The position numbers and the translations under genes are program-made. This document shows, piece after piece, positions 1 to 19,843 of a stretch of 37,498 nucleotides of DNA. How positions within the stretch are numbered: position 1 is the first letter of the stretch; each line of letters begins with the position of its first letter. Origin of the DNA: Fidelibacterota bacterium (GTDB lineage: Bacteria; Fidelibacterota; Marinisomatia; Marinisomatales; TCS55); the NCBI GenBank assembly GCA_046861385.1, contig JBHHTW010000023.1:1-37498 (forward strand), read 5' to 3'. The notes beneath the pieces are model-generated. The model was given only the letters and a program-made list of their open reading frames with translations. It did no database searches and was not told where the DNA came from.

Positions 1-44
1 AGACAGGAATGTCTGTTGCGCCAGACTTTTTCTTACTATAAAAA

Positions 45-73
45 TTGACTTGCCTTTCTCTCAATATTAACTT
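45..73 (+). promoter_or_regulatory. putative sigma70-type promoter of the envelope locus
   Basis: TTGACT (45-50), 17-nt spacer, TAACTT (68-73), 56 nt upstream of the ATG at 130. Confidence 0.55.
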
Positions 74-129
74 GCCAGGCAAATTTTTCAGTATGTTGAT
101 TGAAATGCTGAAAGCATCCAATTCGATCT

Positions 130-2277
130 ATGACAAAAAATTTAAATCACTTCGTTTTGTTTATTCTTTACGCTGGAATTATTACATTTCTCCCAGCCCA
201 ATTTGCTAATGATGTTTATGATAAATATACATCGGTGGGTCAACTGGGTTTAGCCGTTACAAATTTTGGCGTGTTAGGCAACGGATGGAATAAAATCAAC
301 GGTCGCATCCAGCCCTCCTGTCAATACAAACAAAAAACAGAAATTCTCCGGGAACAGGTTGAACATTTTTCTTATGCTGGTCTTTGGATTGGAGGAAAAG
401 TCAATGGTCAGCGGCGCGTTTCTACCGCAATCGTGGATGGTGTGTTTGATTCCGGTCAGGAAGGATTTGAATTTTTCTCTAATTCCGGCGTGGAGATTCG
501 TTCATCCATTTCATCTACATCTTTGGATTCCATGGCTCAATATTTTTCACCATTTGCTGTTTCCCACCAGGATTTAATTATGGATTTCAAGGATTATGGC
601 GTTTCGCCTTCAGATGGTTATGCGATCCCAAATCATAATCCTCTTGGGATTGATGTTCATTTAGAAAGTTATGCCTGGAATTTCACCTTTGCTGACGCGT
701 TTGTTATTTTGAATTACACGATTAAGAATTCCTCTAGTGATACAATAAATAATATTTATGGTGGTTTATGGATGGATGCATCTGTCGCCAATATGAATTA
801 TACAAGTAGATATGAGCCGGGAGGCGGATTTACATGGACGGATAACCTGGATGGGTTTGACCGGTCTGTAGATGATGCAGGTTTTAACCGGGACATTGCC
901 TACCAATACGATGCCGATGGTGATGACGGCTGGGCGGAATCATATATCGGTGTTTCCTTATTGGGTGGAACAGTCCCATTGCCGTATGTTCAATCCCATT
1001 ACAGTCAATGGGCGTGGACCAGTACCAATAATTCTGATTATCCCCAATACGGAATGCCTCTTAGAGATGAAGATCGATACGAAGCAATGAAGTCAAATGT
1101 CCCGAAAGGAACAGGAGTGGATTACACCGAAGAAGGGTATCCAGCTATGCCGGACAGTTGGCTATTTCTACACTCCGCTGGTCCATTTGGTAGTAAACCC
1201 AATAATGCTGATTCAACTAGTTGGATACTACCGCCGGGAGATTCATGTAAAATTGTCATGACCATTGTTTGTGCCCGATGGAATGGTGCGACGGGTGATT
1301 CACCGGAACGTCGGAAAAACCTCCATGTAAATAATGACTGGGCACAAAAAACCTATGATGGTGAAGATATTAACCGGAATAATATTCTGGACGATGGGGA
1401 GGACTTAAATGATGATGGAAAACTCACCCGATATATTTTACCCGAACCACCACCGGTACCCAATATTGCTTTAAAAGTGGATGATCGGGAAGTAACCATT
1501 TACTGGCAAAATAATGCTGAATCATTTGTTGATCCCATCAGTCAGGAACAGGATTTTGAAGGGTATCATATTTATGGGGCTCGTAAAACATTGGGAGATA
1601 GCGATAAAGAATTCACCCTTCTTGGTGAATTCGATTTAGGGCACCCGGATTATTTAAACATTGGGTATAACACCGGATTCGATTTTATTAGAATTGTGAA
1701 TGCATTTGGAGAACAGGATAGTATAGAAATAGATGGTAATTACTATCATTATCAATTTGTCAATAAAGATGTGAAAAATGGATGGCTTAATTATTATGCG
1801 GTAACTGCCTATGACAGGGGAGATCCAAATGCGAATTTGCAAAGCCTTGAAAGTTCTGTTTATGCCAATCGGAAATATGTATACCCCGGGATTAAATCAA
1901 CCAGCGATTGGGCAGGTAAACCAACCGTGTATCCCAATCCCTATCGAGGTCAGGCAAAATGGGACGGTTCTGGCAGCCGGGGACAACAAATTTGGTTTCA
2001 GAATATACCGGAGAAAGCAGAAATCAGGATATTTTCATTAGCAGGAGACTTGGTTGAGGTTCTAAACCATACCAGGGACTATATTGGCGAGGATATACAA
2101 AATATAGATGATCGAAAAAATCCCCAATTCAGTGGAGGAGAACATGCATGGGACCTTATCACTCGTCACGATCAGGCCGCGGCGACAGGATTGTATTTAT
2201 TCACTGTTGAAAATTTAAATATTGAAAGTTCATCATTTGGTGAAATAAAGGAAGGTAAATTTCTAATCATAAAATAA
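130..2277 (+). CDS. secreted protein with Ca-binding-like loops, Fn3-like domain and atypical T9SS/FlgD-like C-terminal sorting domain
   Basis: 715 aa; N-terminal signal peptide; tandem DINRNNILD/DLNDDG loops; Fn3-like PPPVP..VTIYW..NGWLNYYAVTAYD; C-terminus VYPNPY..IRIFSLAGDLV..WDL..GLYLF..GKFLIIK. Confidence 0.75.
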   Translation: MTKNLNHFVLFILYAGIITFLPAQFANDVYDKYTSVGQLGLAVTNFGVLGNGWNKINGRIQPSCQYKQKTEILREQVEHFSYAGLWIGGKVNGQRRVSTAIVDGVFDSGQEGFEFFSNSGVEIRSSISSTSLDSMAQYFSPFAVSHQDLIMDFKDYGVSPSDGYAIPNHNPLGIDVHLESYAWNFTFADAFVILNYTIKNSSSDTINNIYGGLWMDASVANMNYTSRYEPGGGFTWTDNLDGFDRSVDDAGFNRDIAYQYDADGDDGWAESYIGVSLLGGTVPLPYVQSHYSQWAWTSTNNSDYPQYGMPLRDEDRYEAMKSNVPKGTGVDYTEEGYPAMPDSWLFLHSAGPFGSKPNNADSTSWILPPGDSCKIVMTIVCARWNGATGDSPERRKNLHVNNDWAQKTYDGEDINRNNILDDGEDLNDDGKLTRYILPEPPPVPNIALKVDDREVTIYWQNNAESFVDPISQEQDFEGYHIYGARKTLGDSDKEFTLLGEFDLGHPDYLNIGYNTGFDFIRIVNAFGEQDSIEIDGNYYHYQFVNKDVKNGWLNYYAVTAYDRGDPNANLQSLESSVYANRKYVYPGIKSTSDWAGKPTVYPNPYRGQAKWDGSGSRGQQIWFQNIPEKAEIRIFSLAGDLVEVLNHTRDYIGEDIQNIDDRKNPQFSGGEHAWDLITRHDQAAATGLYLFTVENLNIESSSFGEIKEGKFLIIK

Positions 2278-2295
2278 ACAAAAAAGGAGAACAGA

Positions 2296-5200
2296 ATGAA
2301 GAATCTGTTAATAGTGAATATGTTCATGCTGAGCAGTATATTTGCTCAAGTTGATTTTGAAACACAAATCCAACCTATTTTGACTAGCAATTGTACAAGC
2401 TGTCATACATCTACCCACAGTACAGGTTTGGACTTAACATCCGGCAATAGCTATAATGATTTGGTTGATGTGGTATCGCAAAATTATTCTCCAGCATTGC
2501 GTGTTGTTAGCGGGGATCCAGGCAGTTCTGTTATGTATAATAAAATTACGAATACGGGTACCTATGGCGGAGTGATGCCTCCATCAGGGCAAATCTCTAC
2601 GGCCAATCAAACATTGATCCAAACATGGATTACAGAACTTGGTAGTGCGACTTATATCACAATAGCTGAAGCCCGTAACCAGCCCGTTGGGACCAATGTA
2701 ACCGTCAGGGGAATAATTACGACGCCAAATTTTCAATCAAGCAATGCGGAGTTTGGATTGCAAGATCCAACAGCCGGTACTGTCATATTTCATTTTGGTG
2801 CTCCATTTGTAACCTTGAATGTGGGGGATAGTGTAGAGGTCACGGGAGATGTAGATGAGTTTAATGGAAAAATTGAAATTGTACCCAGCGGTGCCAGTGA
2901 TATTACTGTCATTAGCTCGGGCAATAGTTTGCCTGCTTTTCAAGATGTGACGGTTGCCACTTTTGTTGCCAATGGCGAAGATTATGAATCTGAGCTAATA
3001 AAAATTAATAATGCTACAATTACGTCCGGTTCATGGCCGGGGAGTGGTTCATCAGCGAATTTGGACATTTCAGATGATGGCGGTACGTCTACAGTCACCA
3101 TGCGTATCGATTCGGATACAGATATTGATGGACAAACACAGCCGCAGGATCCTTTTAATGTACAGGGGATTGCCGGTCAATATAATGACTATCAGATCTT
3201 CCCGAGATATTACACAGATTTTTCACCTGCCGGCGCTGTTTCACCCACAATAGCTGATATTACTATTGACCCAACAGCTCCAACTGAAGCGGATAATGTT
3301 ACGGTGTCCGCAACTATTACAGATGACGGCACAATTGCCAGTGCAACGCTCACATACAATGGCGGTTCTGAAAATATGACCAATACAACGGGTGATACAT
3401 ATACAGGATCCATATCGGCGCAGACAGCAGGGACAACGGTTACCTTTTCAATAACAGCGGTTGATAATGAAGGTAATAGTACAACATCAGACGAATTTTC
3501 CTATTTAATAATTTCAAGCGGAGGTACAATTACATCTATCTATGATATACAGTACGTCAGCGACCCTGCAGCAAATGACGCCAGTCCTCTTGACGGGCAG
3601 GAAGTAACAATCAGTGGAATTGTAACAGCGGAATTCTGGGGAAGCAGCAGTAACCGCTACCTCCATGTTCAAGATGATGAAGGACCCTGGAATGGAATAG
3701 TCGTATTTGAATATAGCGGCTGGGATAATTTTGATTTTTCAACATCATCTGGAATTGTTAATTCCGTGGCAGAAGGCGATAGTGTTACTTTAACCGGAAC
3801 TGTAGATGAATATTATCACTTAACTGAAATTGTGGATGTGACAGAAGTAATTATTCATGGACAGGCTGTCAATATGATCAGTCCATCTGTCGTTACACCG
3901 GGCCAAGTTATGACAAGCGGAACCGAAGCAGAAGCCTATGAAGGATGTTTAATTATGGTTGAAGATGCATCGGTAGATGATGATAGCCTGGGGCACGGTG
4001 AATGGTCTATCAGTGATGGAACCAATTCTATGAGAGTAGATGATATTTGGGATTATTATTATTTTCCAGTATTGAATCAAAATCTTGCTTCTGTAACGGG
4101 TGTTATGACCTACAATTTCAACGACACAAAACTTGAACCACGTTTAGCTCGCGATGTCGTCGAAGCGGTTGGAGACCCCGTTAGACTTCAACGCATTCAG
4201 CAGGTATTATACAGTGACCTTATTAATACAGCCGAGGATGGCGAGTCGGATATGTCCTATATGCTCGACTCTACTGTTACTGTTGAGGGAATTGTCACAA
4301 TGCCAACCGGTTTGAGTTTTGCCGGTGCAGGAATAAAATTTATTTTCCAGGATGAACATGGGGGTCCGTGGAGTTCAATATTATCCTATGATCCTGACAG
4401 TTCAGCATTCCCAGTGCTGTATGAAGGGGATCGTATTCAGGCAACAGGTTATATTTCTGAATATACAACCAGCACCTCGAATATGACTGAGTTATTCATT
4501 ACTGAACCGGTGAATATTCTTGAAGTAGGTGTTTCTTTACCCACACCGAAACTCGTTGCGACCGGTGATTTGCGCTGGCCAACCGAGGCGGAGCAATGGG
4601 GAAATGTCACCGTTAGGATTGAAGAAGGGATCGTAACAAATAACGATCTTCAATACGAAGTTTTCGAAGTCGATGATGGGTCTGGTGGCGTTTTAGTGGA
4701 TGATGATTCAGATAGTATTTCCACATACTTTGATGCAGTTGGACCGCCTCCAGAAGGATCATTCATTACTTCTATTGAAGGTTGGATTTATCATCATTAT
4801 GGCGCTTATTCAGATTCATCAGCTTATAAACTGGAACCTCTCTATGAATCAGATATTGTATTTGGAGCTGGCCCACCCACTATTTCTGATGTATCAAGAG
4901 ATCCATGTACACCCTCTACATCAGATGCAGTTACTATTAGTGCTGTAATCGAGGATAATTCTGCGATTGCCTCCGCCGACATTATGTACGCGGTCAATGG
5001 TGGTACATATGGATCAGTTTCAATGACATTGGGAACTGACAATACATGGACAGGGACCATCCCGGCCTCAGGTTCTGATGGCGCTCAAATAGATTATTAT
5101 ATTTCAGCTGCCGATGATGGGACTGATCAGGATGCACCTAAAACGAGTACTTATCCCTATGATATTACAGTCCTACAACTCGGCTACGCAACCTATGACG

Positions 5201-6150
5201 ATGGCGGTATTAGTAATATTAGCGATATACAATATACGCAATGGTCTCAGGGAGATTCTCCCTACAATGGGTGTGAAGTCACTGTCACAGGGATTATTAC
5301 TGCGGATACTGCTCAGTATCATTCCGGTTACGGTGCTTATGCACTTCAATTTGAGTCAGCGCCATGGAGTGGAATTGTCTTCGATGGTTGGGATGATTCA
5401 GAATTAACCAGGGGAGATGAAGTGACTATTACAGGTACTGTTGAAGAATATGATCCAACCTGGCATTTTAAATATGATAATAATACCAAACTGATCAATA
5501 TCTCTGGTGTGTCTGTAAATAGCACTGGGAATTCAATTACACCTTTGAGTGTCAGCACAGCTGACTTGGCTGGAGATGCAGATGAAGTTGAATCTTATGA
5601 AGGCTGTCTGGTGACCCTGTCTAATGTGACAGTCTCCACGGCGAACTCGTATGATTGGTCAATCGTCGATGATTCTGGTATAGAATGTCTCATTGATGAT
5701 GATATGGCAACGATGGAAGCCCATAGTGCTATGTCTGGTTTATCTGTAGGTCAAACACTGACAACAGTATCAGGCATTTTCAATTTCAGTTTTGGGACGT
5801 ATAAAATCCAGATTCGGGATGTGACGGACCTGGGCGCTCTTGGGATTGATGATGGTTTTGATGGTGTTGCACGTGAATTTGCACTCTATCCCAACTTCCC
5901 AAATCCATTCAATCCTGAAACGCGCATCCGGTTTCAATTGGCAAAACATTCAGATGTAAAGGTCATGATCTATGATATCCTTGGGAGGAAAGTCAGAACA
6001 TTAGTGTCCGATAAAATGGATGCCGGTTATCATGTAGTTAATTGGGACGGCTTAAATGATGAAGGCTCTGATGTTGCATCCGGTATGTATGTTTACCGGA
6101 TTAAAGCCGGGGATTTCATTGCCCACCGGAAGATGCTGTTGGTGAGATAA
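2296..6150 (+). CDS. secreted multidomain protein: c-type cytochrome domain + 4 double OB-fold repeats + 2 Ig-like domains + T9SS type A/FlgD-Ig CTD
   Basis: 1284 aa; SD AGGAG 2285-2289; signal peptide; CTSCH at aa 33-37 with MPP at aa 94; four repeats I..(I/A)(Q/R)..VT(V/I).GI(I/V)T ... E.YEG.L ... YKL.P; C-terminus FALYPNFPNPFNPET..WDG..VASGMYVYRI..KMLLVR. Confidence 0.85.
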   Translation: MKNLLIVNMFMLSSIFAQVDFETQIQPILTSNCTSCHTSTHSTGLDLTSGNSYNDLVDVVSQNYSPALRVVSGDPGSSVMYNKITNTGTYGGVMPPSGQISTANQTLIQTWITELGSATYITIAEARNQPVGTNVTVRGIITTPNFQSSNAEFGLQDPTAGTVIFHFGAPFVTLNVGDSVEVTGDVDEFNGKIEIVPSGASDITVISSGNSLPAFQDVTVATFVANGEDYESELIKINNATITSGSWPGSGSSANLDISDDGGTSTVTMRIDSDTDIDGQTQPQDPFNVQGIAGQYNDYQIFPRYYTDFSPAGAVSPTIADITIDPTAPTEADNVTVSATITDDGTIASATLTYNGGSENMTNTTGDTYTGSISAQTAGTTVTFSITAVDNEGNSTTSDEFSYLIISSGGTITSIYDIQYVSDPAANDASPLDGQEVTISGIVTAEFWGSSSNRYLHVQDDEGPWNGIVVFEYSGWDNFDFSTSSGIVNSVAEGDSVTLTGTVDEYYHLTEIVDVTEVIIHGQAVNMISPSVVTPGQVMTSGTEAEAYEGCLIMVEDASVDDDSLGHGEWSISDGTNSMRVDDIWDYYYFPVLNQNLASVTGVMTYNFNDTKLEPRLARDVVEAVGDPVRLQRIQQVLYSDLINTAEDGESDMSYMLDSTVTVEGIVTMPTGLSFAGAGIKFIFQDEHGGPWSSILSYDPDSSAFPVLYEGDRIQATGYISEYTTSTSNMTELFITEPVNILEVGVSLPTPKLVATGDLRWPTEAEQWGNVTVRIEEGIVTNNDLQYEVFEVDDGSGGVLVDDDSDSISTYFDAVGPPPEGSFITSIEGWIYHHYGAYSDSSAYKLEPLYESDIVFGAGPPTISDVSRDPCTPSTSDAVTISAVIEDNSAIASADIMYAVNGGTYGSVSMTLGTDNTWTGTIPASGSDGAQIDYYISAADDGTDQDAPKTSTYPYDITVLQLGYATYDDGGISNISDIQYTQWSQGDSPYNGCEVTVTGIITADTAQYHSGYGAYALQFESAPWSGIVFDGWDDSELTRGDEVTITGTVEEYDPTWHFKYDNNTKLINISGVSVNSTGNSITPLSVSTADLAGDADEVESYEGCLVTLSNVTVSTANSYDWSIVDDSGIECLIDDDMATMEAHSAMSGLSVGQTLTTVSGIFNFSFGTYKIQIRDVTDLGALGIDDGFDGVAREFALYPNFPNPFNPETRIRFQLAKHSDVKVMIYDILGRKVRTLVSDKMDAGYHVVNWDGLNDEGSDVASGMYVYRIKAGDFIAHRKMLLVR

Positions 6151-6159
6151 GTTGTAATT

Positions 6160-6196
6160 AACCTTCCGAAGGTTACAAACCTTCGGAAGGTTTTTT
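6160..6196 (+). terminator. perfect 15-bp inverted repeat with U-tract (terminator / REP-like nested palindrome)
   Basis: AACCTTCCGAAGGTT-ACA-AACCTTCGGAAGGTT followed by TTTT, 9 nt after the stop of the 1284-aa gene. Confidence 0.8.
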
Positions 6197-6209
6197 CCAT
6201 AATTCAATT

Positions 6210-7715
6210 ATGCGCTATTTGGGATTTATACTATTGCTATTTTTAGTTTCGTGCTCTCTTTGGGAATACGAGGATCCGTCTATTCCAAATGAAAAAGAAA
6301 TTCCAGAAACCTACTTATCGCTAATTGCCGTTGATACGATCTTTGCAAGTATAGATTCTTTGACCGGCGAGGTTATTTATGCTATTGATGAGGAGCCAAC
6401 ACCGGGAATAATTTGGGATACCCTTGATTATGCCTTTACTACCATTACCACCAGTAAACAACACCTCCACTGGTGGGGAGAGGATAATGACGGAGGTATT
6501 ATCGGATATAAATATAAATGGAATTCGGACACTATTTGGACATTCACAACTGAAGAAGAAGGTTTATTTTTTGTTCCCATCCGAACCGATCTGGACGTAT
6601 TTAGTTTTGAAGTAAAAGCGATTGATACTGATAGTCTTGAAGATGAAACTCCTGCAAAATTGACCGTTCCTATACGTAATTCCCGTCCGGAAATCAGTTT
6701 TCGATATCGCAGCAATCCTTTCGTGGATAATATACAAAGTGACACTAGTTTAACTTTTCCAACTCGAACATTCGTTTGGGATGTAACCGATCAGGACGGC
6801 ATTGAAACAATTACCGATATTTATTGGGCGTTGGATGATACGTGCGATACATGCTGGAACCAATTGGATGCAGCTGCATACTCCAGTAAAACTTTGACAG
6901 AGATTGACCCTGGCTTCCACCGGTTTTATGTGAAAGCGAAAGACATTGCTGGAGCTGAAAGTAATATTATTTTTTTTCCGGATGATACCAATCCAAATGA
7001 GCCCGCTTTCTGGCGAGTGATGCCCGTTCTCGGGGAATTATTACTGGTTGACGATTTTGTACAAGACAGTCAGAACAATGCTCAAAATTGGTATAGGTCT
7101 ATTTTGGATTCAATCGTTGGAGAAAATCAATATTCAGTGTGGGAAATTGGAAATGAGCTCCCATATTCAACCAATGACGTTTCTGCAAATTTACGATATT
7201 TTAAAAAAGTAGTTTGGTATGCTGCTTATACAGGAGGAGAGACATATGATGAGGCAAGCACCAGCTTATTAAACTATGTTCTTGACGGACGCCATTTATT
7301 ACTGAATGCACCTGAGCTGAAAGATTCCACTTTTACATGGTTTCCATTAAATGAAACTTCAGTGATTAATCCTTCAGGCCGTTTATTATCCGGAACAATA
7401 TTGGAATCTCAAATCGATGATAGTTTGAACTTGACGTTGTCGTCATTGGTGGCGATTCGTGTAAAGGAATTTTCACCTGATTCCAGTCAATTCAGTACCA
7501 TTAAAAGCATATATACGATCGAGGAAGGAGAAGGCAATGACGAATGGTCAGGTACACCAAATGTTTGCAGTTTAGGTAGATTTCAAATATCTCCAACAAA
7601 AGAATCCGGAAAAGTAGTTCTTTTTTCAATTCCGATACATAATGGTTCATTACCAGTTTTAAGTAAGAGCAAATCTTTTATTAATTATTTGATACAAAAA
7701 GAGTTTTCTGAGTGA
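6210..7715 (+). CDS. lipoprotein with tandem Fn3/Ig-like domains
   Basis: 501 aa; lipobox LVS-C15; two similar units WWGEDNDG..YKYKW..FEVKAID and WDVTDQDG..IYWAL..FYVKAKD. Confidence 0.75.
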   Translation: MRYLGFILLLFLVSCSLWEYEDPSIPNEKEIPETYLSLIAVDTIFASIDSLTGEVIYAIDEEPTPGIIWDTLDYAFTTITTSKQHLHWWGEDNDGGIIGYKYKWNSDTIWTFTTEEEGLFFVPIRTDLDVFSFEVKAIDTDSLEDETPAKLTVPIRNSRPEISFRYRSNPFVDNIQSDTSLTFPTRTFVWDVTDQDGIETITDIYWALDDTCDTCWNQLDAAAYSSKTLTEIDPGFHRFYVKAKDIAGAESNIIFFPDDTNPNEPAFWRVMPVLGELLLVDDFVQDSQNNAQNWYRSILDSIVGENQYSVWEIGNELPYSTNDVSANLRYFKKVVWYAAYTGGETYDEASTSLLNYVLDGRHLLLNAPELKDSTFTWFPLNETSVINPSGRLLSGTILESQIDDSLNLTLSSLVAIRVKEFSPDSSQFSTIKSIYTIEEGEGNDEWSGTPNVCSLGRFQISPTKESGKVVLFSIPIHNGSLPVLSKSKSFINYLIQKEFSE

Positions 7716-10528
7716 AGCAATTTTTGATAATTGCATTATTTTCTGTTTTTCTTTTTCCCCAAAGCAACGGGGTGATATCTGGTAGAGTCGTTGATTCAAA
7801 AACAAATGAAGGTCTCGCCGGTGTTAATGTCATGATTAAGGGAACATATTATGGTGCAGCGTCAGATTTAGACGGCCGTTTTCGAATCACCGGTGTTTCA
7901 TATGGCACTTACGATATTGAAGCATCTATTATCGGATATAAGATTTTGCTGCAAACGGGTATTACTGTAGAACCCGGTGAACCTACTGTACTGGCTTTTA
8001 TTATGGAAGAGACCGTTTTAACATTGGGAGAAGAAGTGGTTGTTGTTGGTTCCAAACCTCTCTTTGATGTGGATGAAACGTCAAGTGTCACTCGAGTAAC
8101 GAGTGAAGATATTTCTAATAAAGTTGTTTCCAGCGTTGAAGATATATTATCTGAACAAGTCGGAGTAACAACTCAAGACAATGAAATACATATTCGTGGT
8201 GGGCGCATTGATGAAAGCATGTTCGTTGTAGACGGACAATCCATTAAAGACCCTTTATCGGGATATTCCGGGAACCTTTTTATTAATCCAGAGGCCATTG
8301 AGGATTTAGAAATTGTAACGGGAGGATATAATGCCGAATATGGCCAGGCTATGTCCGGGATTATTAACATCAAGCTAAAAGAAGGCCGAGATCATTTTGA
8401 AGGCGCTTTCAAATATTCCAGTGATAATTGGGGAATTGGCCAAGATGCAATCACTCATTATTCTACAGATAGAGTCGAGTTTAATCTGGGTGGACCTGAC
8501 CCGATTTTAGAACAATTTTTACTCAAGTTAGGGCTTGATTTACCTGGTGCGTTTTCCATTTTTGTAAATGGTTATGGAAAAATGTATGATAGTAATCTTC
8601 CTACAGCGAATCAAATTTATCCACATAGATTTTGGTCAATTCCCGGGATAAGCGATAAAACTCAAAATGAATTAATGTCTTCATTAGCACCTCGAGAAAA
8701 TAATGACTGGCATGCTTTATATAAACTAACGTGGGGAATTTCACCGAGAAAAAAATTGAGCATTTCTTACGATATCTCATTGAACATAAATCAGGGCTAT
8801 TTCATGCCCAGGGCATTTTCATCTACATACTATCCTTATACCTACCAGGAAATTTTAAATAATTATAATACAATTACCCGCGAAACACGGTTGGTGAATT
8901 TAAACTGGACTCATACATTGAGTACTCAATCGTTTTATGAAATCACCATAGGCAGGTTTTTGACTCTTGAGCACAGCGCAGTTCAAGATCTTCACTGGAC
9001 CGAGTATAAAGAGCGGCTGGATTTGGACCCCATCAACTACACCGTGATTGATCAGGACGGAAACATTACTATTACTTATGGAGATGAATTTTACGATACC
9101 GGGGTAGCTCCGGAATGGTATGATATTTCCAGTGATAACTATCGTATCGACGCTGATTGGACATATCGTACGCAGAATCGCCACAAACTCAAAACAGGGA
9201 TTGAAAATACGATTACTGAAATTCAAGTTATTGATATTGATGAACCTTGGGCTGGAAAATCGGGTTTTGGGGCTAATTATGATATGTATAATGCTCTCAC
9301 CACTTTTGGAGCAGTCTATGTTCAGGATCGGATCACTTTCGAGGGAATGACTGTTAATATAGGCATGCGTTATGATTATTGGTTCCCAGGGAAATACGTA
9401 GAGGAAGCTATCAATAATCCAAACACGGTCATTATTACCGATGCAGCACGGAAAAGATTCCATGAAGAAACGTTTGAATTATTTGGATACAAAGGAAAGG
9501 GAAGATTCAGCCCTCGATTTGGTATATCCCATCCCGTAACCGATAATGATGTTCTATATTTTTACTATGGCCATTTTTCCCAATTACCCACATTCCAGTA
9601 TGTTTATGCAAAACTTAATTCTCTGTCTCAATCAACCTATCAGGTTTTTGGAAATCCTAACCTGAATCCGAAAACAACAGTCCAATATGAATTAGGAATA
9701 AAACACAGATTCAGTGAGGATCAAGTACTGGAAATGAAAGCATACTGGAAAGATATGTTTGATTATGAAACATCTCAAACCATCACCCCTTCAAACCCAA
9801 AATATGCTCATTTACGTTTTAACATGTATTTTAATGCGGATTACGCCAGAGCCAGGGGGATTGAAATGATCCTGAAAAGCAGGGTTTTAAAACGATGGTA
9901 TGTAGATATGAATTTCAATTATTCCATCATTACTGGAAAGAGCTCATCTCCCTTAGATAATTTACTTGTCCAAGCAGGAGCATTAAGCGAAAAACCGTTG
10001 GGTGAGAATTACATGAGTTGGGATAAACCGTTTCAATTTTTTAGTAACATCTATTATAACCATCCAGCAAACTGGGGAGCTTCACTTCGGTTTGAATTTG
10101 GCTCCGGACGTCGATATACAAAATCCTTTCCAGGGACAAATGATTACGAAGATGGAATAAGATATATAAATGATGTACCATATTATGTTGGTTCAAGGGA
10201 CGGTGATAATCCCAATGCTTACATCAGCGAATATACTCCAGAATTATTCAAATTATTGGGAATGGACAATGTGAATGGTTACAGCACAGTGGATTTAAAA
10301 CTCTATAAATCATTTAAAATAATCGGAATGAAATACAAGATATATTTAGAGATAGAAAACATTTTTAATGAACATATACCCAGACGCATTAATCCATATA
10401 CAGGAAGAGGATATAACCCGGGAGAAATTATTCCTTATAGCATGATTAATAGTCCAAATCCTAACAATGATCCATCCCGGAATAGAAGACCTCGAACAGT
10501 AGAATTAGGAATGCAGGTTATTTTCTAA
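7712..10528 (+). CDS. TonB-dependent receptor with N-terminal carboxypeptidase-regulatory-like domain
   Basis: 938 aa, GTG start overlapping previous TGA; GVISGRVVDSKTNEGLAGVNVMIKGT; plug IHIRGGR..VVDG..IEDLEIVTGGYNAEYGQAMSGIINI; GNPNLNPKTTVQYELG; terminal Phe. Confidence 0.93.
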   Translation: MKQFLIIALFSVFLFPQSNGVISGRVVDSKTNEGLAGVNVMIKGTYYGAASDLDGRFRITGVSYGTYDIEASIIGYKILLQTGITVEPGEPTVLAFIMEETVLTLGEEVVVVGSKPLFDVDETSSVTRVTSEDISNKVVSSVEDILSEQVGVTTQDNEIHIRGGRIDESMFVVDGQSIKDPLSGYSGNLFINPEAIEDLEIVTGGYNAEYGQAMSGIINIKLKEGRDHFEGAFKYSSDNWGIGQDAITHYSTDRVEFNLGGPDPILEQFLLKLGLDLPGAFSIFVNGYGKMYDSNLPTANQIYPHRFWSIPGISDKTQNELMSSLAPRENNDWHALYKLTWGISPRKKLSISYDISLNINQGYFMPRAFSSTYYPYTYQEILNNYNTITRETRLVNLNWTHTLSTQSFYEITIGRFLTLEHSAVQDLHWTEYKERLDLDPINYTVIDQDGNITITYGDEFYDTGVAPEWYDISSDNYRIDADWTYRTQNRHKLKTGIENTITEIQVIDIDEPWAGKSGFGANYDMYNALTTFGAVYVQDRITFEGMTVNIGMRYDYWFPGKYVEEAINNPNTVIITDAARKRFHEETFELFGYKGKGRFSPRFGISHPVTDNDVLYFYYGHFSQLPTFQYVYAKLNSLSQSTYQVFGNPNLNPKTTVQYELGIKHRFSEDQVLEMKAYWKDMFDYETSQTITPSNPKYAHLRFNMYFNADYARARGIEMILKSRVLKRWYVDMNFNYSIITGKSSSPLDNLLVQAGALSEKPLGENYMSWDKPFQFFSNIYYNHPANWGASLRFEFGSGRRYTKSFPGTNDYEDGIRYINDVPYYVGSRDGDNPNAYISEYTPELFKLLGMDNVNGYSTVDLKLYKSFKIIGMKYKIYLEIENIFNEHIPRRINPYTGRGYNPGEIIPYSMINSPNPNNDPSRNRRPRTVELGMQVIF

Positions 10529-10637
10529 TGCAAAATTATACGACTAAAACAATGAACATTCCGTTTTTAGATAACCTCTCTTTTTTGCCTGTCCGACTTG
10601 TGGCACTAATAACCGAAATACAAAGGGATAAAAAACA

Positions 10638-11696
10638 ATGAGAGTAAATTCCTTATTATTTTGGATTATTAATTTGGTGGGAGGCAAATATTTTTTCCCA
10701 TTAACTAAAGCCTGCGTAATAATATCATTTTTCACATTTGCTCAAGGACAAAATTTTTTCCCTATCCTTGGCGGTCAGCGAGTGGGGACATCCGTATTTA
10801 CATTTCTGAAAATCGGCGTCAGCGCCAGGGCTGTCGGAATGGGTGAAGCGGTTGCTGCCCTTCAACAGGACGCTGGGTCTGTTTATTATAATCCTGGGAC
10901 GATAGCTCAATTTAAGCAATCTGAGTTTTCAGCTTCTCGAATCCAATGGCCGGCAGAAATAAATTATGATTATTTTAGTTTAACTCGAAAAATTACAGGA
11001 CGCCATTTTGCCGGAATTTCCTTTGGTATTTTGCATTTGGCTCCCATGCGTGAAACGACAGAATTTTTACCCCACGGTACAGGAAATTATTTTCTATTTC
11101 AAGACCGGTTTATTGCACTCACATATGGTGTGCGCATGACCGATCGGTTTAGTTTTGGCATTACCTTAAAACAGGTCGAAGAAGAATTGGCAGGGCAAAC
11201 AATGAGTACAGGTATGCTGGACATGGGGACCTTTTATTGGACGGGATTTCGTTCATTAAGTTTTTCAGCTTCTCTCTCTCATTTTGGACCACAGGCTAAA
11301 CCGGATGGAACATTTCAGAAACATGTTTTAGATACTGAAACGGGTGAAGAAAAAATAATAAAAGCTGATTTTGAATCTTTTTCACCGCCAACAGTTTTCC
11401 GTGTAGGTGCTGCGATGGATATCTGGAAGACTGAAATGCAATCAATTATTGTTGCCTTGCAGATGAACCATCCGGTGGATAATGCAGAAAATATTTCTAC
11501 AGGGTTCGAATACAATCTTGCCGATTTACTATTTTTAAGAAGTGGATATAAAATCAATAAAGAAGAAGAAAACGTATCTTTTGGCGCAGGTCTCATTATT
11601 CCAATTGGCAAACTCAAACTCAGAGTAGATTATGCCATAGCCAATTTTAATCATTTATCAGATCCGCAACGATTGTCATTAGGAATTGCGTTTTGA
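10638..11696 (+). CDS. PorV/PorQ-family (FadL-like) outer-membrane beta-barrel
   Basis: 352 aa (start uncertain); signature FLKIGVSARAVGMGEA..D..SVYYNPG; amphipathic strands; ends RLSLGIAF. Confidence 0.85.
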   Translation: MRVNSLLFWIINLVGGKYFFPLTKACVIISFFTFAQGQNFFPILGGQRVGTSVFTFLKIGVSARAVGMGEAVAALQQDAGSVYYNPGTIAQFKQSEFSASRIQWPAEINYDYFSLTRKITGRHFAGISFGILHLAPMRETTEFLPHGTGNYFLFQDRFIALTYGVRMTDRFSFGITLKQVEEELAGQTMSTGMLDMGTFYWTGFRSLSFSASLSHFGPQAKPDGTFQKHVLDTETGEEKIIKADFESFSPPTVFRVGAAMDIWKTEMQSIIVALQMNHPVDNAENISTGFEYNLADLLFLRSGYKINKEEENVSFGAGLIIPIGKLKLRVDYAIANFNHLSDPQRLSLGIAF

Positions 11697-13030
11697 AAAA
11701 AATAAAAGCAATTTTTATTGCCCTCATCATTGTTCTCTTTTTTGCTTGTGTTGACAAAATGCAGCTTCCAGACTCTCTGGATACCAATACGGAATTTTCT
11801 GCGGGAGATACAACCTTTATCCTTGTTCAGCCAATTTGGGATGAATCTATGGGGCTTCAATCTCCTCTTGAAATTTCAGTTGCACAAGACGGCCATGTAT
11901 TTGTTGCAGACACAAGTGCAAATTCAATTCTTGTATTTTCGCAAGATGGAGAACCGTTATCGAACTTTACAGATTTACAGCACTTAGAAATAAAACCGAT
12001 TGATGTGGATATTGATCAGAAAATGAATATCTATTTTATTGATGGCAGTGAAAAAATCTATGTTTGGAACCAGTATATCAACGATGTCGGAATAGACGAG
12101 ATGGCTATTTCTGGTTCATTTTATAACGAAGATGCAGGGTCAGTTACAATAGATGCTTTATCAGAAGAGTGGGTGATTTATTTGGAAAATAACGATTGGG
12201 TGCTCGAAGGCGTGACTTGGGGTATGCCTGAAAATGTGATTGATTCACTTCTCGCTCCCCATATCTTTTATGATGGCACTAACCCTACCCATTCATTTAA
12301 TGATATTTATTATGAATCGGGACTGTCATCATTTTCAGGTTTATCCGCAACACGGGACAAAAACAATTACATTTATGCATTAGACTTTACACATGATCGC
12401 ATTGTCCGTATAGATCTTCATAAAACACATTTAATTAAATTGAAAAATGGAGAAAAGATTTGGGTGCATAGAGGTGAATTTGAGTCATCAATATCTGAAT
12501 TTGGAACCGGAGCAGGAACGGTGAACAACCCCTTAGGAATTGATGTTGATTACAATGGAAATATATACTACGCACAGACTGGCGATTACTTTTCAGTTCA
12601 TAAAATACGACCACTGACGTCAGGGACATATACGACTTATCCTTCCGTATTTCAGCAAGGGGTTAACGATATTATGGATCTGTTTCGATTTTCAAATCCG
12701 AACGATATCGCTGTGGATAATAAACAATTTGTTTACGTCTCCAATACTGAAGAGCAAGAAATTCAAGTGTTTAATTCTGACGGACAATTTTTTCTCAAAG
12801 CCGGCGTAGAAACAATGATAATAGATACAACGATTTACATTTTTAACGGTACAGATACGGTATCAGTAGATACATTTATGACCGTGGAAGAAAAAGGATT
12901 ATTAGTAGAACCACAGGGAATCACAGTTGATAGTAGGGGAATAATATATATTTGTGATACACCAACCGGTCGTATTTTACGCTATAGGCTTTCCAATCAA
13001 TTAGATGAAGATCTACAACCGGTTCAATAA
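11693..13030 (+). CDS. NHL-repeat beta-propeller lipoprotein
   Basis: 445 aa, TTG start overlapping TGA; lipobox FFA-C; repeats PLEISVAQDGHVFVADT, PLGIDVDYNGNIYYA, PNDIAVDNKQFVYVSNT, PQGITVDSRGIIYICDT. Confidence 0.85.
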   Translation: MKKIKAIFIALIIVLFFACVDKMQLPDSLDTNTEFSAGDTTFILVQPIWDESMGLQSPLEISVAQDGHVFVADTSANSILVFSQDGEPLSNFTDLQHLEIKPIDVDIDQKMNIYFIDGSEKIYVWNQYINDVGIDEMAISGSFYNEDAGSVTIDALSEEWVIYLENNDWVLEGVTWGMPENVIDSLLAPHIFYDGTNPTHSFNDIYYESGLSSFSGLSATRDKNNYIYALDFTHDRIVRIDLHKTHLIKLKNGEKIWVHRGEFESSISEFGTGAGTVNNPLGIDVDYNGNIYYAQTGDYFSVHKIRPLTSGTYTTYPSVFQQGVNDIMDLFRFSNPNDIAVDNKQFVYVSNTEEQEIQVFNSDGQFFLKAGVETMIIDTTIYIFNGTDTVSVDTFMTVEEKGLLVEPQGITVDSRGIIYICDTPTGRILRYRLSNQLDEDLQPVQ

Positions 13031-13970
13031 ATACATATTATTATTCCCCATATTTGCGCTGTTGTCCGGGCAGGGAACGGAAACAGCATTCATTAAATAT
13101 TATAAAACCAATCGACAGTTCATTGCAGATGTACCCATGCTGGCAACTGAACGCAGAGGGCAATCTCATCTTGAAGTGACTTTTAATGAGAATAAACAAC
13201 CGGTTTTAAAGCGATGGTTGAATGATAATCAAGATTTGGTCAAAGAGGAAATGTTAGTTTATAACAGATCAAATACTTTGCAGAAACGGTTATTTCTTGA
13301 TAAAAATCGCAAGACTGAAAAGATAATTCACTATGGAGAAAAAGAACTTTGGAGTGTTGAATTCAGAAATTATTCAAGCCCCAAAAAGAATGTAAATTAT
13401 TTTATTGGACAGCAGACTGAATTTCTGTTAAACAACAGCAATGAGATTCAAAACATTATTTTTCGTACAATTGATAATCATAAATATGGCGCAATCAACC
13501 TAACGTATGATCATTTAGGCTTCTTGCGTGAAGAAGTTTGGAGAGTTCTTCCGAATGATGAAGTCATACGGAAATTTGTGTATCATTATGACATTATTAA
13601 TAACATTCAACAAATCTGGGAATATGGTATTGGTGGTCGGGAGATAAGTCATGTATCGTTAAGCATGGCTCCGGAGGACAAATTGTATACAACACCACCT
13701 CCAAGAACAGGAAATGTGCTGGATGAAGCTGATGTTATCTTACAGGAATTACTATCAAAGAGAATCGTAACACCAATACCTGCCTTTATTCCTTTTACTG
13801 AACGGGATCAAATAATATTTATCGATGGAGAAACATTGGATATCGTTTTTGTGGCGATTGATGATAACTATCTTTGGTTCTCACTTCCAAATGAGTCAGA
13901 TGTATTAAGTATTCCCTTAGATCGAATTTCTTCAGCAACGAGCAAATTTGGAAAACAGCTTTACCCTTAA
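13005..13970 (+). CDS. hypothetical exported protein
   Basis: 321-aa ORF overlapping the upstream gene by 26 nt; signal-peptide-like N-terminus; beta-hairpin-rich; no family recognised. Confidence 0.7.
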   Translation: MKIYNRFNKYILLFPIFALLSGQGTETAFIKYYKTNRQFIADVPMLATERRGQSHLEVTFNENKQPVLKRWLNDNQDLVKEEMLVYNRSNTLQKRLFLDKNRKTEKIIHYGEKELWSVEFRNYSSPKKNVNYFIGQQTEFLLNNSNEIQNIIFRTIDNHKYGAINLTYDHLGFLREEVWRVLPNDEVIRKFVYHYDIINNIQQIWEYGIGGREISHVSLSMAPEDKLYTTPPPRTGNVLDEADVILQELLSKRIVTPIPAFIPFTERDQIIFIDGETLDIVFVAIDDNYLWFSLPNESDVLSIPLDRISSATSKFGKQLYP

Positions 13971-14059
13971 GACTGAAAAAATTATGAACATGAATTACTG
14001 AAGACGAAGTAATTTTCAAGTCAATGATCATCCTTTCACATTCAACATTCAGCCTAACG

Positions 14060-14089
14060 TTGCAATCTCTTCAAACTTCTGATTAAATT
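14060..14089 (+). promoter_or_regulatory. putative sigma70 promoter, possibly giving a leaderless mRNA
   Basis: TTGCAA (14060-14065), 18 nt, TAAATT (14084-14089); ATG at 14095; no SD. Confidence 0.4.
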
Positions 14090-14094
14090 TAAGC

Positions 14095-14865
14095 ATGAAA
14101 CACATACCGCATGATTTTCTTTTATTACTATTATCTGGAATTCTTTTAGCTCAGGACACATATCCACCGCCAACGAATCTTGTAACAATCCCAACCGCCG
14201 GAACACTGGTTCGTGGAAGCTTTGCAATGAAAATACATGTCCAGAAAAATGGCGGTTTAACTTCAGGATTGAAAGTTGGAATTACAGATCGATTTCAATT
14301 TGGTCTTATGTTCGGCGCAAGCAATCTAATTGGAGATGATAGTCTCCGTTGGTACCCACGGCCGGAAGTGAATTTAAAATACCGTCTCATTGATGAAACC
14401 ACAACCATGCCCGGTATTTCTCTGGGTTTGGATACACAGGGATTTGGTACTTTTAATGAAGCTGATTCATTGAAGCGATATGAAATTAAAGCATACGGTT
14501 TGTTTTTATCTGGGAGTAAAAACTGGACAACACCTTTGGGGAATATGGGAATTCACGGCGGAATGAATTATAATTTTACTGAAATACTTGATGGGGATGA
14601 GGATCCAAGTTTGTTTATGGGATTGGATTTAGAATTTAATCCTGAGCTATCATTGCTCTTTGAATATAATGCAGCGTTAAATGAAAATGATTTAAGAGCA
14701 AGGGATATTTCGCTCAACAGAGGCGGGTATTTAAATGCAGCAGTACGGTGGACATTTGTGGAGCACCTCCATATTGAATTAGATTTTAATAATCTTCTTT
14801 TTGATAAAGACCGGGTAAATTATTTCAACCGCGAACTCAAAATTATTTATATCGAATATTTTTAA
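14095..14865 (+). CDS. YjbH-like outer-membrane beta-barrel protein
   Basis: 256 aa; signal peptide; LVTIPTAGTL, VNLKYRLIDE..PGISLG; terminal YIEYF. Confidence 0.65.
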   Translation: MKHIPHDFLLLLLSGILLAQDTYPPPTNLVTIPTAGTLVRGSFAMKIHVQKNGGLTSGLKVGITDRFQFGLMFGASNLIGDDSLRWYPRPEVNLKYRLIDETTTMPGISLGLDTQGFGTFNEADSLKRYEIKAYGLFLSGSKNWTTPLGNMGIHGGMNYNFTEILDGDEDPSLFMGLDLEFNPELSLLFEYNAALNENDLRARDISLNRGGYLNAAVRWTFVEHLHIELDFNNLLFDKDRVNYFNRELKIIYIEYF

Positions 14866-14917
14866 ACTTATTAGCAACGTAATTTCTTAATCATTAACTA
14901 ATTACGTTTTATCAAAG

Positions 14918-15457: not shown

Positions 15458-15537
15458 TTTTCCCAAACCAAGTATTTTTGTTATATATCCATCTTTTGAA
15501 ATATTTATACACTATAATGACGTCGTAATTTATCAAT

Positions 15538-18347: not shown

Positions 18348-18348
18348 C

Positions 18349-19839: not shown

Positions 19840-19843
19840 ATTA

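Follow-up and report, generated by a model that had tools for sequence, protein, structure and literature searches.

The first third of the window (the whole stretch of DNA analyzed, 37,498 nucleotides from a marine Marinimicrobia, or Fidelibacterota, bacterium) most likely holds the Marinimicrobia copy of an ancient six-gene FCB outer-membrane module that captures extracellular nucleic acid and imports the fragments through a TonB-dependent receptor (TBDR), without a SusD-type lid. We put the probability of this reading at roughly 55%. The conserved unit consists of P1 to P6 (130-13030), namely a CTD protein, an OB-fold CTD protein, an Fn3 lipoprotein, the TBDR, a PorV/PorQ-family barrel, and an NHL lipoprotein. 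The first-pass annotation, made from the DNA alone, had described seven co-directional genes, and its reading as a whole is supported in silico, none of the refuting outcomes it had named having been observed. All seven ORFs are confirmed and run on the + strand, neighbors being 18, 59, or 109 nt apart or sharing 4, 4, or 26 nt. They are P1 (130..2277, 715 aa), P2 (2296..6150, 1284 aa), the lipoprotein P3 (6210..7715, 501 aa), the receptor P4 (7712..10528, 938 aa), the barrel P5 (10638..11696, 352 aa as listed), the β-propeller lipoprotein P6 (11693..13030, 445 aa; NHL repeats, 65.1 bits), which is the last core gene, and the exported protein P7 (13005..13970, 321 aa). Signal peptides and lipoboxes were assigned by eye. 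As had been claimed, no SusD, CAZyme, or peptidase was matched in the seven proteins by Pfam or NCBIfam.

The arrangement is far beyond chance, since the gene order is kept across an order and several phyla. The succession P1-P2-P3-P4-P5-P6 is identical in 18 of 18 same-order loci (18 fetched of 30 returned), and orthologues of P3 occur in 32 of the 61 genomes of the order, our own counted. A P1 alignment found 80 named loci; of the 51 with 6.8 kb or more of downstream sequence, 45 carry P2, P3, and P4 in order after P1. P1-P2-P3-TBDR is present in Marinimicrobia, KSB1, Calditrichota, LCP-89, and Ignavibacteria. Genes resembling P5 and P6 come after the receptor in all five distant genomes examined (Ignavibacteriae, LCP-89, Calditrichia, KSB1, and a MAG labeled 'Cytophagia'). 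The genes are thus syntenic both in same-order relatives and in other phyla.

Six of the seven genes originally grouped together are therefore conserved, but P7 is not a member, and a gene on the adjoining contig had been missed. The window opens with an intergenic leader (1..129, + strand), bases 1-18 of which overlap the 3' end of contig C30; the C30 tail and the C13 head are adjacent in L042, L044, and L040. Just upstream of the window lies a nuclease-like EEP+LTD+CTD gene (C30:30839-32599), recognized by its domain matches, with an EEP score of 23.8 bits that falls just below the cut-off of 24.5. Of the 25 closest named loci, 18 have such a gene upstream as well, and its product is a further member of the locus. 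Terminator-like hairpins are found on the + strand in the leader (11-26) and between P2 and P3 (6160..6192, a 15-bp stem followed by a T run), the latter possibly marking where a P1-P2 unit ends and a P3-P6 unit starts, or acting as an attenuator between the two. Because these hairpins part the nuclease gene, P1-P2, and P3-P6, the genes may not form a single operon.

P2, which we propose to be a surface protein that would capture nucleic acid, bears most directly on the substrate. It comprises a variable, CxxCH cytochrome-c-like N-terminus (1-120), a DUF5689-like OB module (~121-388), further modules akin to the ExeM/NucH N-terminus, Ig-like domains, and a CTD of the ordinary type A (TIGR04183, 35.2 bits, cut-off 23). 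The OB fold is matched by PF01336 (41.1 bits), the cytochrome-c matches are weak (an orthologue matches PF00034 at 23.6 bits, cut-off 21.3), and residues 404-1284 form a conserved core that extends to other phyla. DUF5689 is matched in P2 and nowhere else in the genome, at 29.7 bits for a cut-off of 28.6 and, in a second search, at 27.8 bits with profile positions 19-216 out of 217 covered, so that the assignment is marginal. Experiments link this domain to the uptake of DNA in Bacteroides and in Riemerella (PMC12478041; PMC8459023). The further modules of P2 match positions 1-120 of the ExeM/NucH model (NF033681), as do those of its orthologues in other phyla; P2 itself reaches 83.8 bits where the cut-off is 300, and lacks the catalytic EEP domain. 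The likeness to ExeM/NucH extends to an LTD in the orthologues and to the EEP+LTD neighbor, the difference being that these features are here split over two T9SS cargo proteins.

The neighborhood points the same way. Elsewhere the module is flanked by PLD-like+DUF5689, Metallophos+DUF5689, MBL+CTD, and LTD+DUF5689 proteins, and directly upstream some other loci carry an EEP, two 5'-nucleotidases, or an NPP phosphodiesterase, which make up 4 of the 50 upstream ORFs scanned; the other 46, in distant loci, are unrelated housekeeping genes and count against this reading. The enzymes recurring beside this module are phosphoesterases of five different folds. The initial guess of a nucleic-acid substrate is strengthened by the sole DUF5689 match falling in P2 and by the secreted phosphoesterases that several lineages have beside the locus.

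The substrate might instead be a glycan or some other polymer, with the OB/DUF5689-like modules and the P1 sandwich binding carbohydrate, an alternative to which we would give about one chance in five. OB folds bind oligosaccharides too, the DUF5689 match is borderline, and P2 and its orthologues show weak CBM_56 matches, which however lie below the cut-off. The modeled folds of P1 and P3 could also be read this way. P1 is predicted to consist of a signal peptide, a galactose-mutarotase-like super-sandwich (~25-438), a Ca-loop/Fn3 region (~445-590), and a T9SS-type CTD (~590-715); it has no Pfam or NCBIfam match, and its homologues form 1659 clusters at E<=0.001. In the model (pLDDT 87.7), the sandwich resembles the non-catalytic N-domains of GH116, GH15, and GH94 (Z 16-19; 19.3 for the GH116 N-domain). 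The P3 model (pLDDT 83.1) has two Ig/Fn3 domains and a ThuA/GATase1-like α/β domain (274-501, Z about 14), akin to the ThuA-like domains of glycosidases; the conserved catalytic Cys is absent from its invariant columns. Against a carbohydrate substrate, the core genes of the 18 same-order loci include no CAZyme, and the recurring neighbors are phosphoesterases. P1-like proteins, moreover, accompany every receptor/P1-like/barrel triad whatever the substrate, and are therefore uninformative on it. Both models are β-rich rather than TPR, and neither adopts a SusD fold or that of a catalytic CAZyme, in agreement with the absence of a SusD-type lid noted at first.

The genome holds 11 P1-family genes. 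Nine of the 10 others lie directly downstream of a TBDR gene, which P1-like genes overlap or abut in other triads; seven are then directly followed by a PorV_fam gene and one more is separated from it by a single gene. This gives about eight further receptor/P1-like/PorV-like triads, situated beside starch or peptidoglycan genes, whose accessory genes vary (GH13 with CBM20/48, or GH18 with NamZ and LD-carboxypeptidase). Across nine triads the three components diverge in step, their pairwise distances being correlated (Mantel r 0.76, 0.64, and 0.55; P 0.0004-0.008). SusD is matched only once in the genome, in its sole SusC/SusD pair. The triad is a generic chassis, reused about nine times with substrate-specific accessory genes.

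We propose that, within this chassis, P1 is a SusD-analogous surface partner held by P5, which would serve as the anchor of the P1 CTD. P5 scores 184.4 bits on the PorV/PorQ family model (NF033709, cut-off 90) and has a barrel of the 14-strand type; its start is uncertain (10638, 10674, or 10677), the orthologues measuring 332-339 aa. Assignment as either equivalog was rejected, both cut-offs being missed (PorQ, 71 against 220 bits; PorV, 56.8 against 250). The P1 CTD is long, ends in GKFLIIK, and finds its best structural match in the modeled comparison with the CTD of PorZ (Z 11.9, rmsd 2.4 Å, 92 residues). Judged by their motifs, P1-type CTDs are a separate class: the PNP motif stands 95-115 residues before the C-terminus vs 79-85 in most ordinary CTDs, and the terminus reads GKFxVIK vs KKMxLLK. 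Complex prediction of P5 with the P1 CTD gave 0.93, 0.93, and 0.92, the best of three controls reaching 0.00, with contact agreement of at least 89% and partner pLDDT of at least 77; of 157 solved complexes, 116 attain this mark, as do 2 of 215 mismatched pairs. The predicted interface is built from core elements common to ordinary CTDs, so the predicted complex demonstrates neither that P5 is specific to P1 nor that the tether is permanent, and it may echo the likeness to solved PorV-CTD complexes. It is the genome-wide gene pairing that points to P1, and not P2, as the partner of P5. The idea that a local PorV paralogue holds the CTD protein or proteins gains support from the predicted interface.

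These same generic interface elements would suit a different role, which we consider improbable, on a par with a carbohydrate substrate, in which P5 either acts as a PorV-like shuttle, passing local cargo from SprA on to PorU, or is a FadL-type channel that has nothing to do with CTD binding, P1 is LPS-linked or released, and P3 or P6 is the true partner of the receptor. PorV in its canonical form acts as a shuttle, P5 weakly matches Toluene_X/FadL (24.9 bits), and the stop of P3 overlaps the start of P4, as expected of a stoichiometric partner. However, the genome already has a stronger PorV candidate (on C2; Pfam PorV, 99 bits), about 40 ordinary CTD proteins lack a private barrel while 8 of the 10 other P1-type genes lie within one gene of one, and it is the P1-like genes that overlap or abut the receptor genes of the other triads, in which P3 and P6 have no paralogues. 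As anticipated, core T9SS components are present (SprA and PorU); GldL and GldM gave no match with TIGR03513 and TIGR03517, two profiles that were silent in the controls too.

In the P. gingivalis T9SS attachment complex, the PorQ-PorZ and PorV-PorU pairs are barrels that hold a surface protein by its retained CTD; they serve secretion itself, once per genome. P5 and P1 share the barrel family and the PorZ-like CTD, whereas in this genome the pair occurs about nine times over and is coupled to nutrient receptors. P4 carries the CarboxypepD_reg N-domain and Plug also found in SusC/SusD systems, with a TonB-box-like EEVVVVG seen by eye, and the co-encoded surface binders and enzymes, the many paralogous loci, and their substrate-specific accessories are likewise reminiscent of those utilisomes. 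Yet P4 is rejected by score as a SusC/RagA family member (TIGR04056, 65.1 bits, cut-off 368), there is no SusD, P1 and P3 are β-rich, and the partners are T9SS cargo together with a PorV-family barrel.

Among the closest known systems is ddbABCDEF, the DNA-utilization loci of gut Bacteroidales (Sharan et al. 2025, bioRxiv 10.1101/2025.03.18.642099; PNAS PMC12478041). These are PUL-like and combine a TonB-dependent transporter, a DUF5689-type OB module proposed to bind DNA, secreted nucleases, and a partner that is not SusD. DdbD, however, is described there as a lipoprotein encoded beside the transporter, whereas here the DUF5689-like module is part of P2, a T9SS cargo protein of 1284 aa encoded two genes from the receptor; the Bacteroides locus, so far as the accessible text goes, has no CTD proteins, PorV-family barrel, or counterparts of P1, P3, or P6. 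The terms 'type IX', 'T9SS', and 'PorV' are absent from the PNAS text, and our literature search found no paper on a T9SS-linked form of this DNA-uptake module. In Riemerella anatipestifer, the accessible part of PMC8459023 describes a transformation pair, RA0C_RS04915 (a barrel with CarboxypepD_reg) and RA0C_RS04920 (DUF5689 + DUF5017), which resembles our locus in joining an outer-membrane barrel with a carboxypeptidase-regulatory N-domain to a DUF5689 surface protein for passing DNA across the outer membrane, but it is a two-gene competence unit for which that part reports no T9SS-type tails or PorV-like barrel.

Uptake of DNA for natural transformation rather than food, as by this Riemerella pair, is the least probable of the alternatives: the pair is essential for transformation (PMC8459023), the ddb authors relate the two systems (10.1101/2025.03.18.642099; PMC12478041), a ComEC-type Competence protein is encoded on C39 (PF03772, 194 bits), and the locus contains no catabolic genes for nucleotides, but ComEC is near-universal (the PF03772 control was positive in 10 of 14 genomes), the flanking nucleases, nucleotidases, and phosphodiesterases would destroy transforming DNA, and the sister triads are plainly nutritional.

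We favor nutritional capture of nucleic acid and propose the following sequence of events. The T9SS would export the EEP+LTD nuclease-like enzyme, P2, and P1, as their CTDs suggest, and the enzyme, judging from its domains, would cut DNA or RNA. P2 would use its OB modules, of the DUF5689 and ExeM/NucH types, to keep the polymer at the cell surface, a role based on homology to the DNA-associated DdbD and to the Riemerella partner domain. P1, with its distinct, longer CTD, would be kept by P5 rather than released, as PorQ holds PorZ, and its β-sandwich would sit beside or over the receptor as a functional stand-in for SusD; this retention is suggested by the complex prediction, the P1-like/PorV-like pairing in the paralogous triads, and the co-divergence of their components. 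The lipoproteins P3 and P6 may be accessory surface components, and P4 would import the oligonucleotides. Counting against this scheme, genes for handling nucleotides in the periplasm or inner membrane are absent from the locus.

Homologues of P3 are named only 'hypothetical protein' and come from Marinimicrobia/Fidelibacterota. P7, which has no family match, is confined to Fidelibacterota; in the same-order loci it directly follows P6 in 12 of 18, is absent there in 4, and lies on the other side in 2. It is outside the conserved unit and moves separately, together with P8, a Nudix gene, and QueG.

Seven plus-strand ORFs, abutting or overlapping, lie where the first-pass annotation had placed a single uptake locus. 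They encode P1 (130-2277), with no Pfam or NCBIfam match; P2 (2296-6150), with a CxxCH N-terminus, an OB-fold domain (PF01336, 41.1 bits), stretches resembling the nuclease family ExeM/NucH and a type-A C-terminal sorting domain (CTD) for type IX secretion (T9SS); P3 (6210-7715), a lipoprotein of no family; P4 (7712-10528), a TonB-dependent receptor (TBDR) with CarboxypepD_reg and Plug domains; P5 (10638-11696), a member of the PorV/PorQ family; P6 (11693-13030), an NHL-repeat lipoprotein; and P7 (13005-13970), whose function is unassigned. The window is contig C13 of a genome of 2.43 Mb (104 contigs, 97.9% complete), and the named P3 homologues are labeled Candidatus Marinimicrobia, Neomarinimicrobiota or Fidelibacterota. 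Family searches with the seven proteins matched no SusD, carbohydrate-active enzyme or peptidase, in agreement with the earlier description.

The seven-gene locus holds for P1-P6 but not for P7. The order P1-P2-P3-P4-P5-P6 is kept in all 18 loci fetched from the same order (18 of the 30 returned). P7, which is mobile relative to P6, directly follows it in 12 of these 18, is absent there in four and lies on the opposite side of the locus in two; when relocated, it is accompanied by the next ORF (P8), a Nudix gene and QueG, and therefore belongs to a neighboring block outside the module. Synteny thus rules out both P7 and P8 as locus members. The block itself (window 13005-16458: P7, P8 of 256 aa with weak outer-membrane-barrel matches, a NudE-like Nudix hydrolase and QueG) is kept across the order, where it travels independently of the uptake module. 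Kinship of P7 with QueA, or any connection to queuosine by way of the nearby QueG, was rejected: the scores are below the cut-offs (22.9 vs 25 bits; 16 vs 267), P7 has a signal peptide, and its look-alikes are unnamed Fidelibacterota proteins.

In relatives, a protein of about 580 aa combining Exo_endo_phos (EEP), lamin-tail (LTD) and CTD domains is encoded upstream of P1. Its counterpart here is a nuclease-like gene on another contig (C30:30839-32599). The last 18 bases of C30 are the first 18 bases of the window and the two contig ends map adjacent in three relatives, so that the contigs adjoin; the overlap falls in a hairpin-forming repeat just 3' of the nuclease-like gene (window 1-26). 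The assembly break had hidden the location of the module about 9 kb downstream of the SprA gene (C30:17302-23520), which clusters with an M28 peptidase, a CTD protein and two weak PorV-like barrels. Terminator-like hairpins occur at window 11-26, after the nuclease-like gene, and at 6160-6192, after P2 (15-bp stem), so transcription of the module may fall into two or three units; a promoter scan of the sequence found 59 candidates against a shuffle mean of 53.5, which is not above the shuffles. In G004, a genome of the same genus, an IS200-like (Y1_Tnp) ORF separates P1 from the nuclease-like gene (L039:1884-2378), and the coding regions of the TBDR and P5 share 4 nt. The window instead carries some 170 inserted nt after the TBDR stop and ahead of the P5 signal peptide (10529-10700, compared with L039:13200-13260), and the start and N-terminal region of P5 consequently differ from those of G004.

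Of the T9SS core (SprA, PorU, PorV and PorK-N), SprA (588.6 bits) and PorU (584.7 bits vs a cut-off of 420) were found in the genome, together with 14 matches to the PorV family model, 11 of them above cut-off, and about 40 further CTD matches. The GldM and GldL TIGRFAMs gave no match in this genome, and the control genomes were equally silent. P4 is a TBDR, a class whose hallmarks are a Plug domain, a TonB box and a 22-strand barrel: its Plug domain scores 48.7 bits (cut-off 23.9), a TonB-box-like EEVVVVG can be identified by eye, and residues 108-743 give partial matches to several TBDR models. PF00593 is listed for six paralogues and unlisted for P4. Against the SusC/RagA family (TIGR04056) P4 reaches 65.1 bits vs a cut-off of 368.25, with the match confined to its N-terminal 205 residues.

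The structural model of P1, built with 51 aligned homologues (pLDDT 87.7, pTM 0.85), predicts a galactose-mutarotase-like super-sandwich at residues 25-438 that resembles the non-catalytic N-domains of GH116, GH15 and GH94 enzymes (VIA Z 19.3 for GH116, rmsd 3.8 Å, 279 aligned). A predicted Fn3 domain follows, and residues 590-715 are modeled as a CTD that most closely resembles that of PorZ (Z 11.9, rmsd 2.4 Å, 92 aligned, 20% identity). P1 itself has no HMM match, and an iterated search connects its CTD to ordinary CTDs. P3 (pLDDT 83.1) is modeled as two Ig/Fn3 domains and a ThuA/GATase1-like domain at 274-501 (Z ~14); this last region contains no invariant or near-invariant Cys, which rules out a catalytic GATase. 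The models of P1 and P3, composed of beta-sandwich, Fn3 and alpha-beta elements rather than TPRs, likewise rule out a SusD-like fold for either protein, and neither PF07980 nor PF14322 matched any of the seven proteins; the claim that the locus lacks SusD is thereby borne out.

P5 matches the PorV/PorQ family (NF033709) over the full-length profile (1-326) at 184.4 bits vs a cut-off of 90, and is below the equivalog cut-offs for PorV (NF033710, 56.8 vs 250) and PorQ (NF033711, 71 vs 220); a stronger PorV candidate is encoded elsewhere in the genome (C2:21063-22442). By their sequences, the CTDs of the P1 family form a distinct, longer class: the PNP motif lies 95-115 residues from the C-terminus, as opposed to 79-85 in most ordinary CTDs, and most tails end in G(K/R)(F/L)xV(I)K, as opposed to (K/Q)K(M/L)xLLK. 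P2 (35.2 bits on TIGR04183, cut-off 23) and the nuclease-like protein (51 bits) carry the ordinary class. The earlier proposal of a CTD-barrel interface gains support from complex prediction with P5 (37-352) and the P1 CTD (592-715), run on alignments made for this analysis: the pair scored 0.93, 0.93 and 0.92, as compared with 0.00 for the best of three controls. Of 157 solved complexes 116 attain that mark, as do 2 of 215 mismatched pairs. At least 89% of contacts are shared between runs, partner pLDDT is at least 77, and the P1 residues predicted to contact P5 are 599-608, 633-642, 678-694 and 706-715. The prediction thus supports binding of the P1 CTD by P5. PorV-CTD complexes of a similar kind have already been solved, and the high score may reflect that likeness. 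Since the interface lies in elements common to ordinary CTDs, any specificity of P5 for P1 is suggested by the gene pairing and not by the model.

This pairing recurs in the genome. Iterated searching found 11 P1-family proteins; nine of the ten other genes come immediately after a TBDR gene, the stop codon of one frequently overlapping the start codon of the next, and seven of the ten are then directly followed by a PorV-family gene, with one more having a single gene between. The window locus belongs with these triads in rearranged form, P1 standing first and the barrel coming straight after the receptor. Pairwise distances among receptors, P1-like proteins and barrels correlate over nine triads (Mantel r 0.76, 0.64 and 0.55; P 0.0004, 0.0048 and 0.0079), a small sample of identity-based distances. 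Triads at C56:48000-62200, C89:122000-135800 and C9:5400-38900 have starch-like and peptidoglycan-like accessory genes. One triad, beside GH13 and a CBM20/CBM48 CTD protein, looks like a starch locus; two look like peptidoglycan loci, one beside GH18, NamZ, LD-carboxypeptidase and D-Ala-D-Ala dipeptidase, the other beside an amidase (amidase_3) and GHL10. Upstream of the receptor, several sister triads also encode a lipoprotein with a PPIase domain. The single SusD_RagB match in the genome is a 416-aa ORF (39.5 bits, C60:9000-13200) adjoining a 968-aa TBDR, giving one classical SusC/SusD-like pair vs about nine PorV-type triads.

The module extends well beyond this genome. Within the order, 32 of 61 genomes, the present one included, carry a P3 orthologue (27 of 47 high-quality genomes), and P1 finds matches in 1659 representative clusters (E<=0.001). 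Scanning named genomes with a 19-row P1 alignment gave 80 loci; where at least 6.8 kb is available downstream of P1, P2, P3 and a TBDR follow in order in 45 of 51. Synteny, expected under the earlier proposal, was thus found in relatives and in other phyla. The six exceptions comprise two with the TBDR beyond the flank, one circular permutation (P3-P4-P5-P6-P1-P2), two in which P2 is too divergent to score and one with only P2. In five of five distant FCB genomes the receptor is followed by a PorV-family gene and a gene for a P6-like lipoprotein, and these genomes have 15-54 PorV-family matches each. Record titles of the loci include Marinimicrobia, KSB1, Calditrichota, LCP-89 and Ignavibacteria/Melioribacteraceae. 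Winogradskyella, Bacillota, Lentisphaeria and Deferribacteres also appear as doubtful labels; these oddly titled loci (L069, L129, L085/L089 and L086/L087/L091/L115) are 42-66% identical to a Marinimicrobia protein and are probably mis-binned or carry old taxonomic labels.

The first indication of substrate comes from P2. A complete ExeM/NucH nuclease is ruled out: the match to NF033681 reaches 83.8 bits vs a cut-off of 300, in three stretches that cover profile positions 1-120 alone. The conserved core of P2 spans residues 404-1284 (671-1284 in Ignavibacteria). Residues 121-388 match DUF5689 in a segment scan (27.8 bits, profile positions 19-216 of 217) and can be aligned to the DUF5689 portions of proteins that flank the module in other phyla; in a six-frame search P2 is the sole DUF5689 match of the genome (29.7 bits vs a cut-off of 28.6). 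In Bacteroides thetaiotaomicron, the locus ddbABCDEF is needed for DNA depletion; it encodes nucleases, a TonB-dependent transporter (DdbC) and a DUF5689 protein (DdbD), the last of which is modeled as the DNA-binding partner of DdbC (bioRxiv 10.1101/2025.03.18.642099). Natural transformation in Riemerella anatipestifer requires both a CarboxypepD_reg barrel and the DUF5689 protein next to it (PMC8459023).

Genes flanking the module point the same way. The EEP domain of the C30 protein scores 23.8 bits vs a cut-off of 24.5, two orthologues reach 31.3 and 39.1 bits, and in 18 of the 25 closest named loci the module has an EEP plus LTD gene upstream. Downstream of P6 stand a PLD-like plus DUF5689 gene in Ignavibacteriae, a Metallophos plus DUF5689 gene in Calditrichia, and MBL plus CTD and LTD plus DUF5689 genes in LCP-89. 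The nearest same-strand ORFs upstream of distant loci, 50 in all, include one EEP protein, two 5'-nucleotidases and one type I phosphodiesterase; the other 46 are unrelated. Because DUF5689 is tied to DNA in the papers above and flanking phosphoesterases of different folds, secreted or exported, recur, nucleic acid is, on these sequence comparisons, the most likely substrate (probability roughly 0.6). Carbohydrate is a live alternative, given the marginal DUF5689 score of P2, weak CBM_56 matches and the resemblance of the P1 sandwich to sugar enzymes. That DNA would be taken up for natural transformation and not as food is unlikely; a ComEC-type gene is present, although this family is near-universal.

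The N-terminus of P2 is variable, with weak cytochrome-c matches around the CxxCH in the window and an LTD in two genomes of the same family, one of the same genus. Among close relatives the domain is swapped (window 2296-2655; L039:4773-8828; L037:10475-14872): the window and L033 have the CxxCH cytochrome-c-like form, G004 and G018 a lamin-tail domain instead. P2 of the window would be a T9SS cargo protein with a haem domain. Searched against solved structures, the P2 sequence found only FlgD Ig-like matches, to its CTD. The P2 orthologue of one locus (L040, G008:C4) is broken up into ORFs of 550, 668 and 272 aa, which could be due to frameshifts, a pseudogene or assembly errors.

For nucleic acid as the substrate, we propose a mechanism in which the T9SS would export the nuclease-like enzyme, P2 and P1 as its cargo. 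The nuclease-like enzyme and P2, through their ordinary CTDs, would cut and hold the polymer at the surface, while P1 would remain tethered by its long CTD to the private barrel P5 and act as the receptor partner instead of SusD. PorQ, which holds PorZ, provides the model for P5 holding P1. P3 and P6 would be accessory surface lipoproteins, and P4 would transport oligonucleotides inward.

To our knowledge, TonB-dependent uptake in Bacteroidota-related phyla is understood almost wholly through SusC/SusD. In those loci a SusD/RagB-family TPR lipoprotein stands beside the receptor, whereas the module has none and P4 is below the SusC/RagA cut-off. The closest known systems are ddb and the Riemerella pair. 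The module shares with them a TonB-type barrel and may share a DUF5689-type domain, for which its match is marginal, and nucleases, which are putative here; it differs from them in the predicted T9SS-delivered partners, the PorV-family barrel and the conserved P1, P3 and P6. The DUF5689 partner in ddb is an adjacent lipoprotein, whereas here the DUF5689 match falls on the T9SS cargo-type P2. Our literature search found no account of a module of TBDR, CTD protein and PorV-like barrel, and the main text of the PNAS paper on ddb contains no mention of T9SS, PorV or the names of the other phyla.

The locus and roughly eight sister triads in a 2.4-Mb genome point to another receptor outfit, built of T9SS-delivered partners and a private PorV-like barrel, and suggest a possible role for many annotated 'PorV/PorQ family proteins' in such genomes. 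In the ocean, as in sediments, dissolved DNA is a major organic pool of P and N. If the DNA assignment is true, the module offers a testable dissolved-DNA route for Marinimicrobia/SAR406, Ignavibacteria, Calditrichota, KSB1 and relatives, and would add a much older, T9SS-linked form to the DNA-uptake systems newly described as ddb in Bacteroides and in Riemerella. A wider and tentative reading, about which we are more doubtful than confident, would be that PorV/PorQ-family barrels have multiplied in the non-Bacteroidota FCB phyla as private anchors, each holding the uncleaved CTD of a large beta-sandwich protein over a TBDR. Such a T9SS-assembled utilisome of receptor, lid and anchor would be the counterpart of SusC/SusD in these lineages, and the six-gene module its most ancient and most widely conserved version, a DNA import machine older than the split of the phyla that would make the abundant deep-ocean SAR406 cells dissolved-DNA consumers or naturally transformable.

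Elsewhere in the window, an ECF sigma factor gene on the minus strand, followed by ORFs with weak LiaF and LiaG matches (17463-22597), suggests an envelope-stress-type cluster. The remainder is housekeeping: mdh, L21, RNase G, metH and a thrA-asd-thrB-thrC-metB-like operon.
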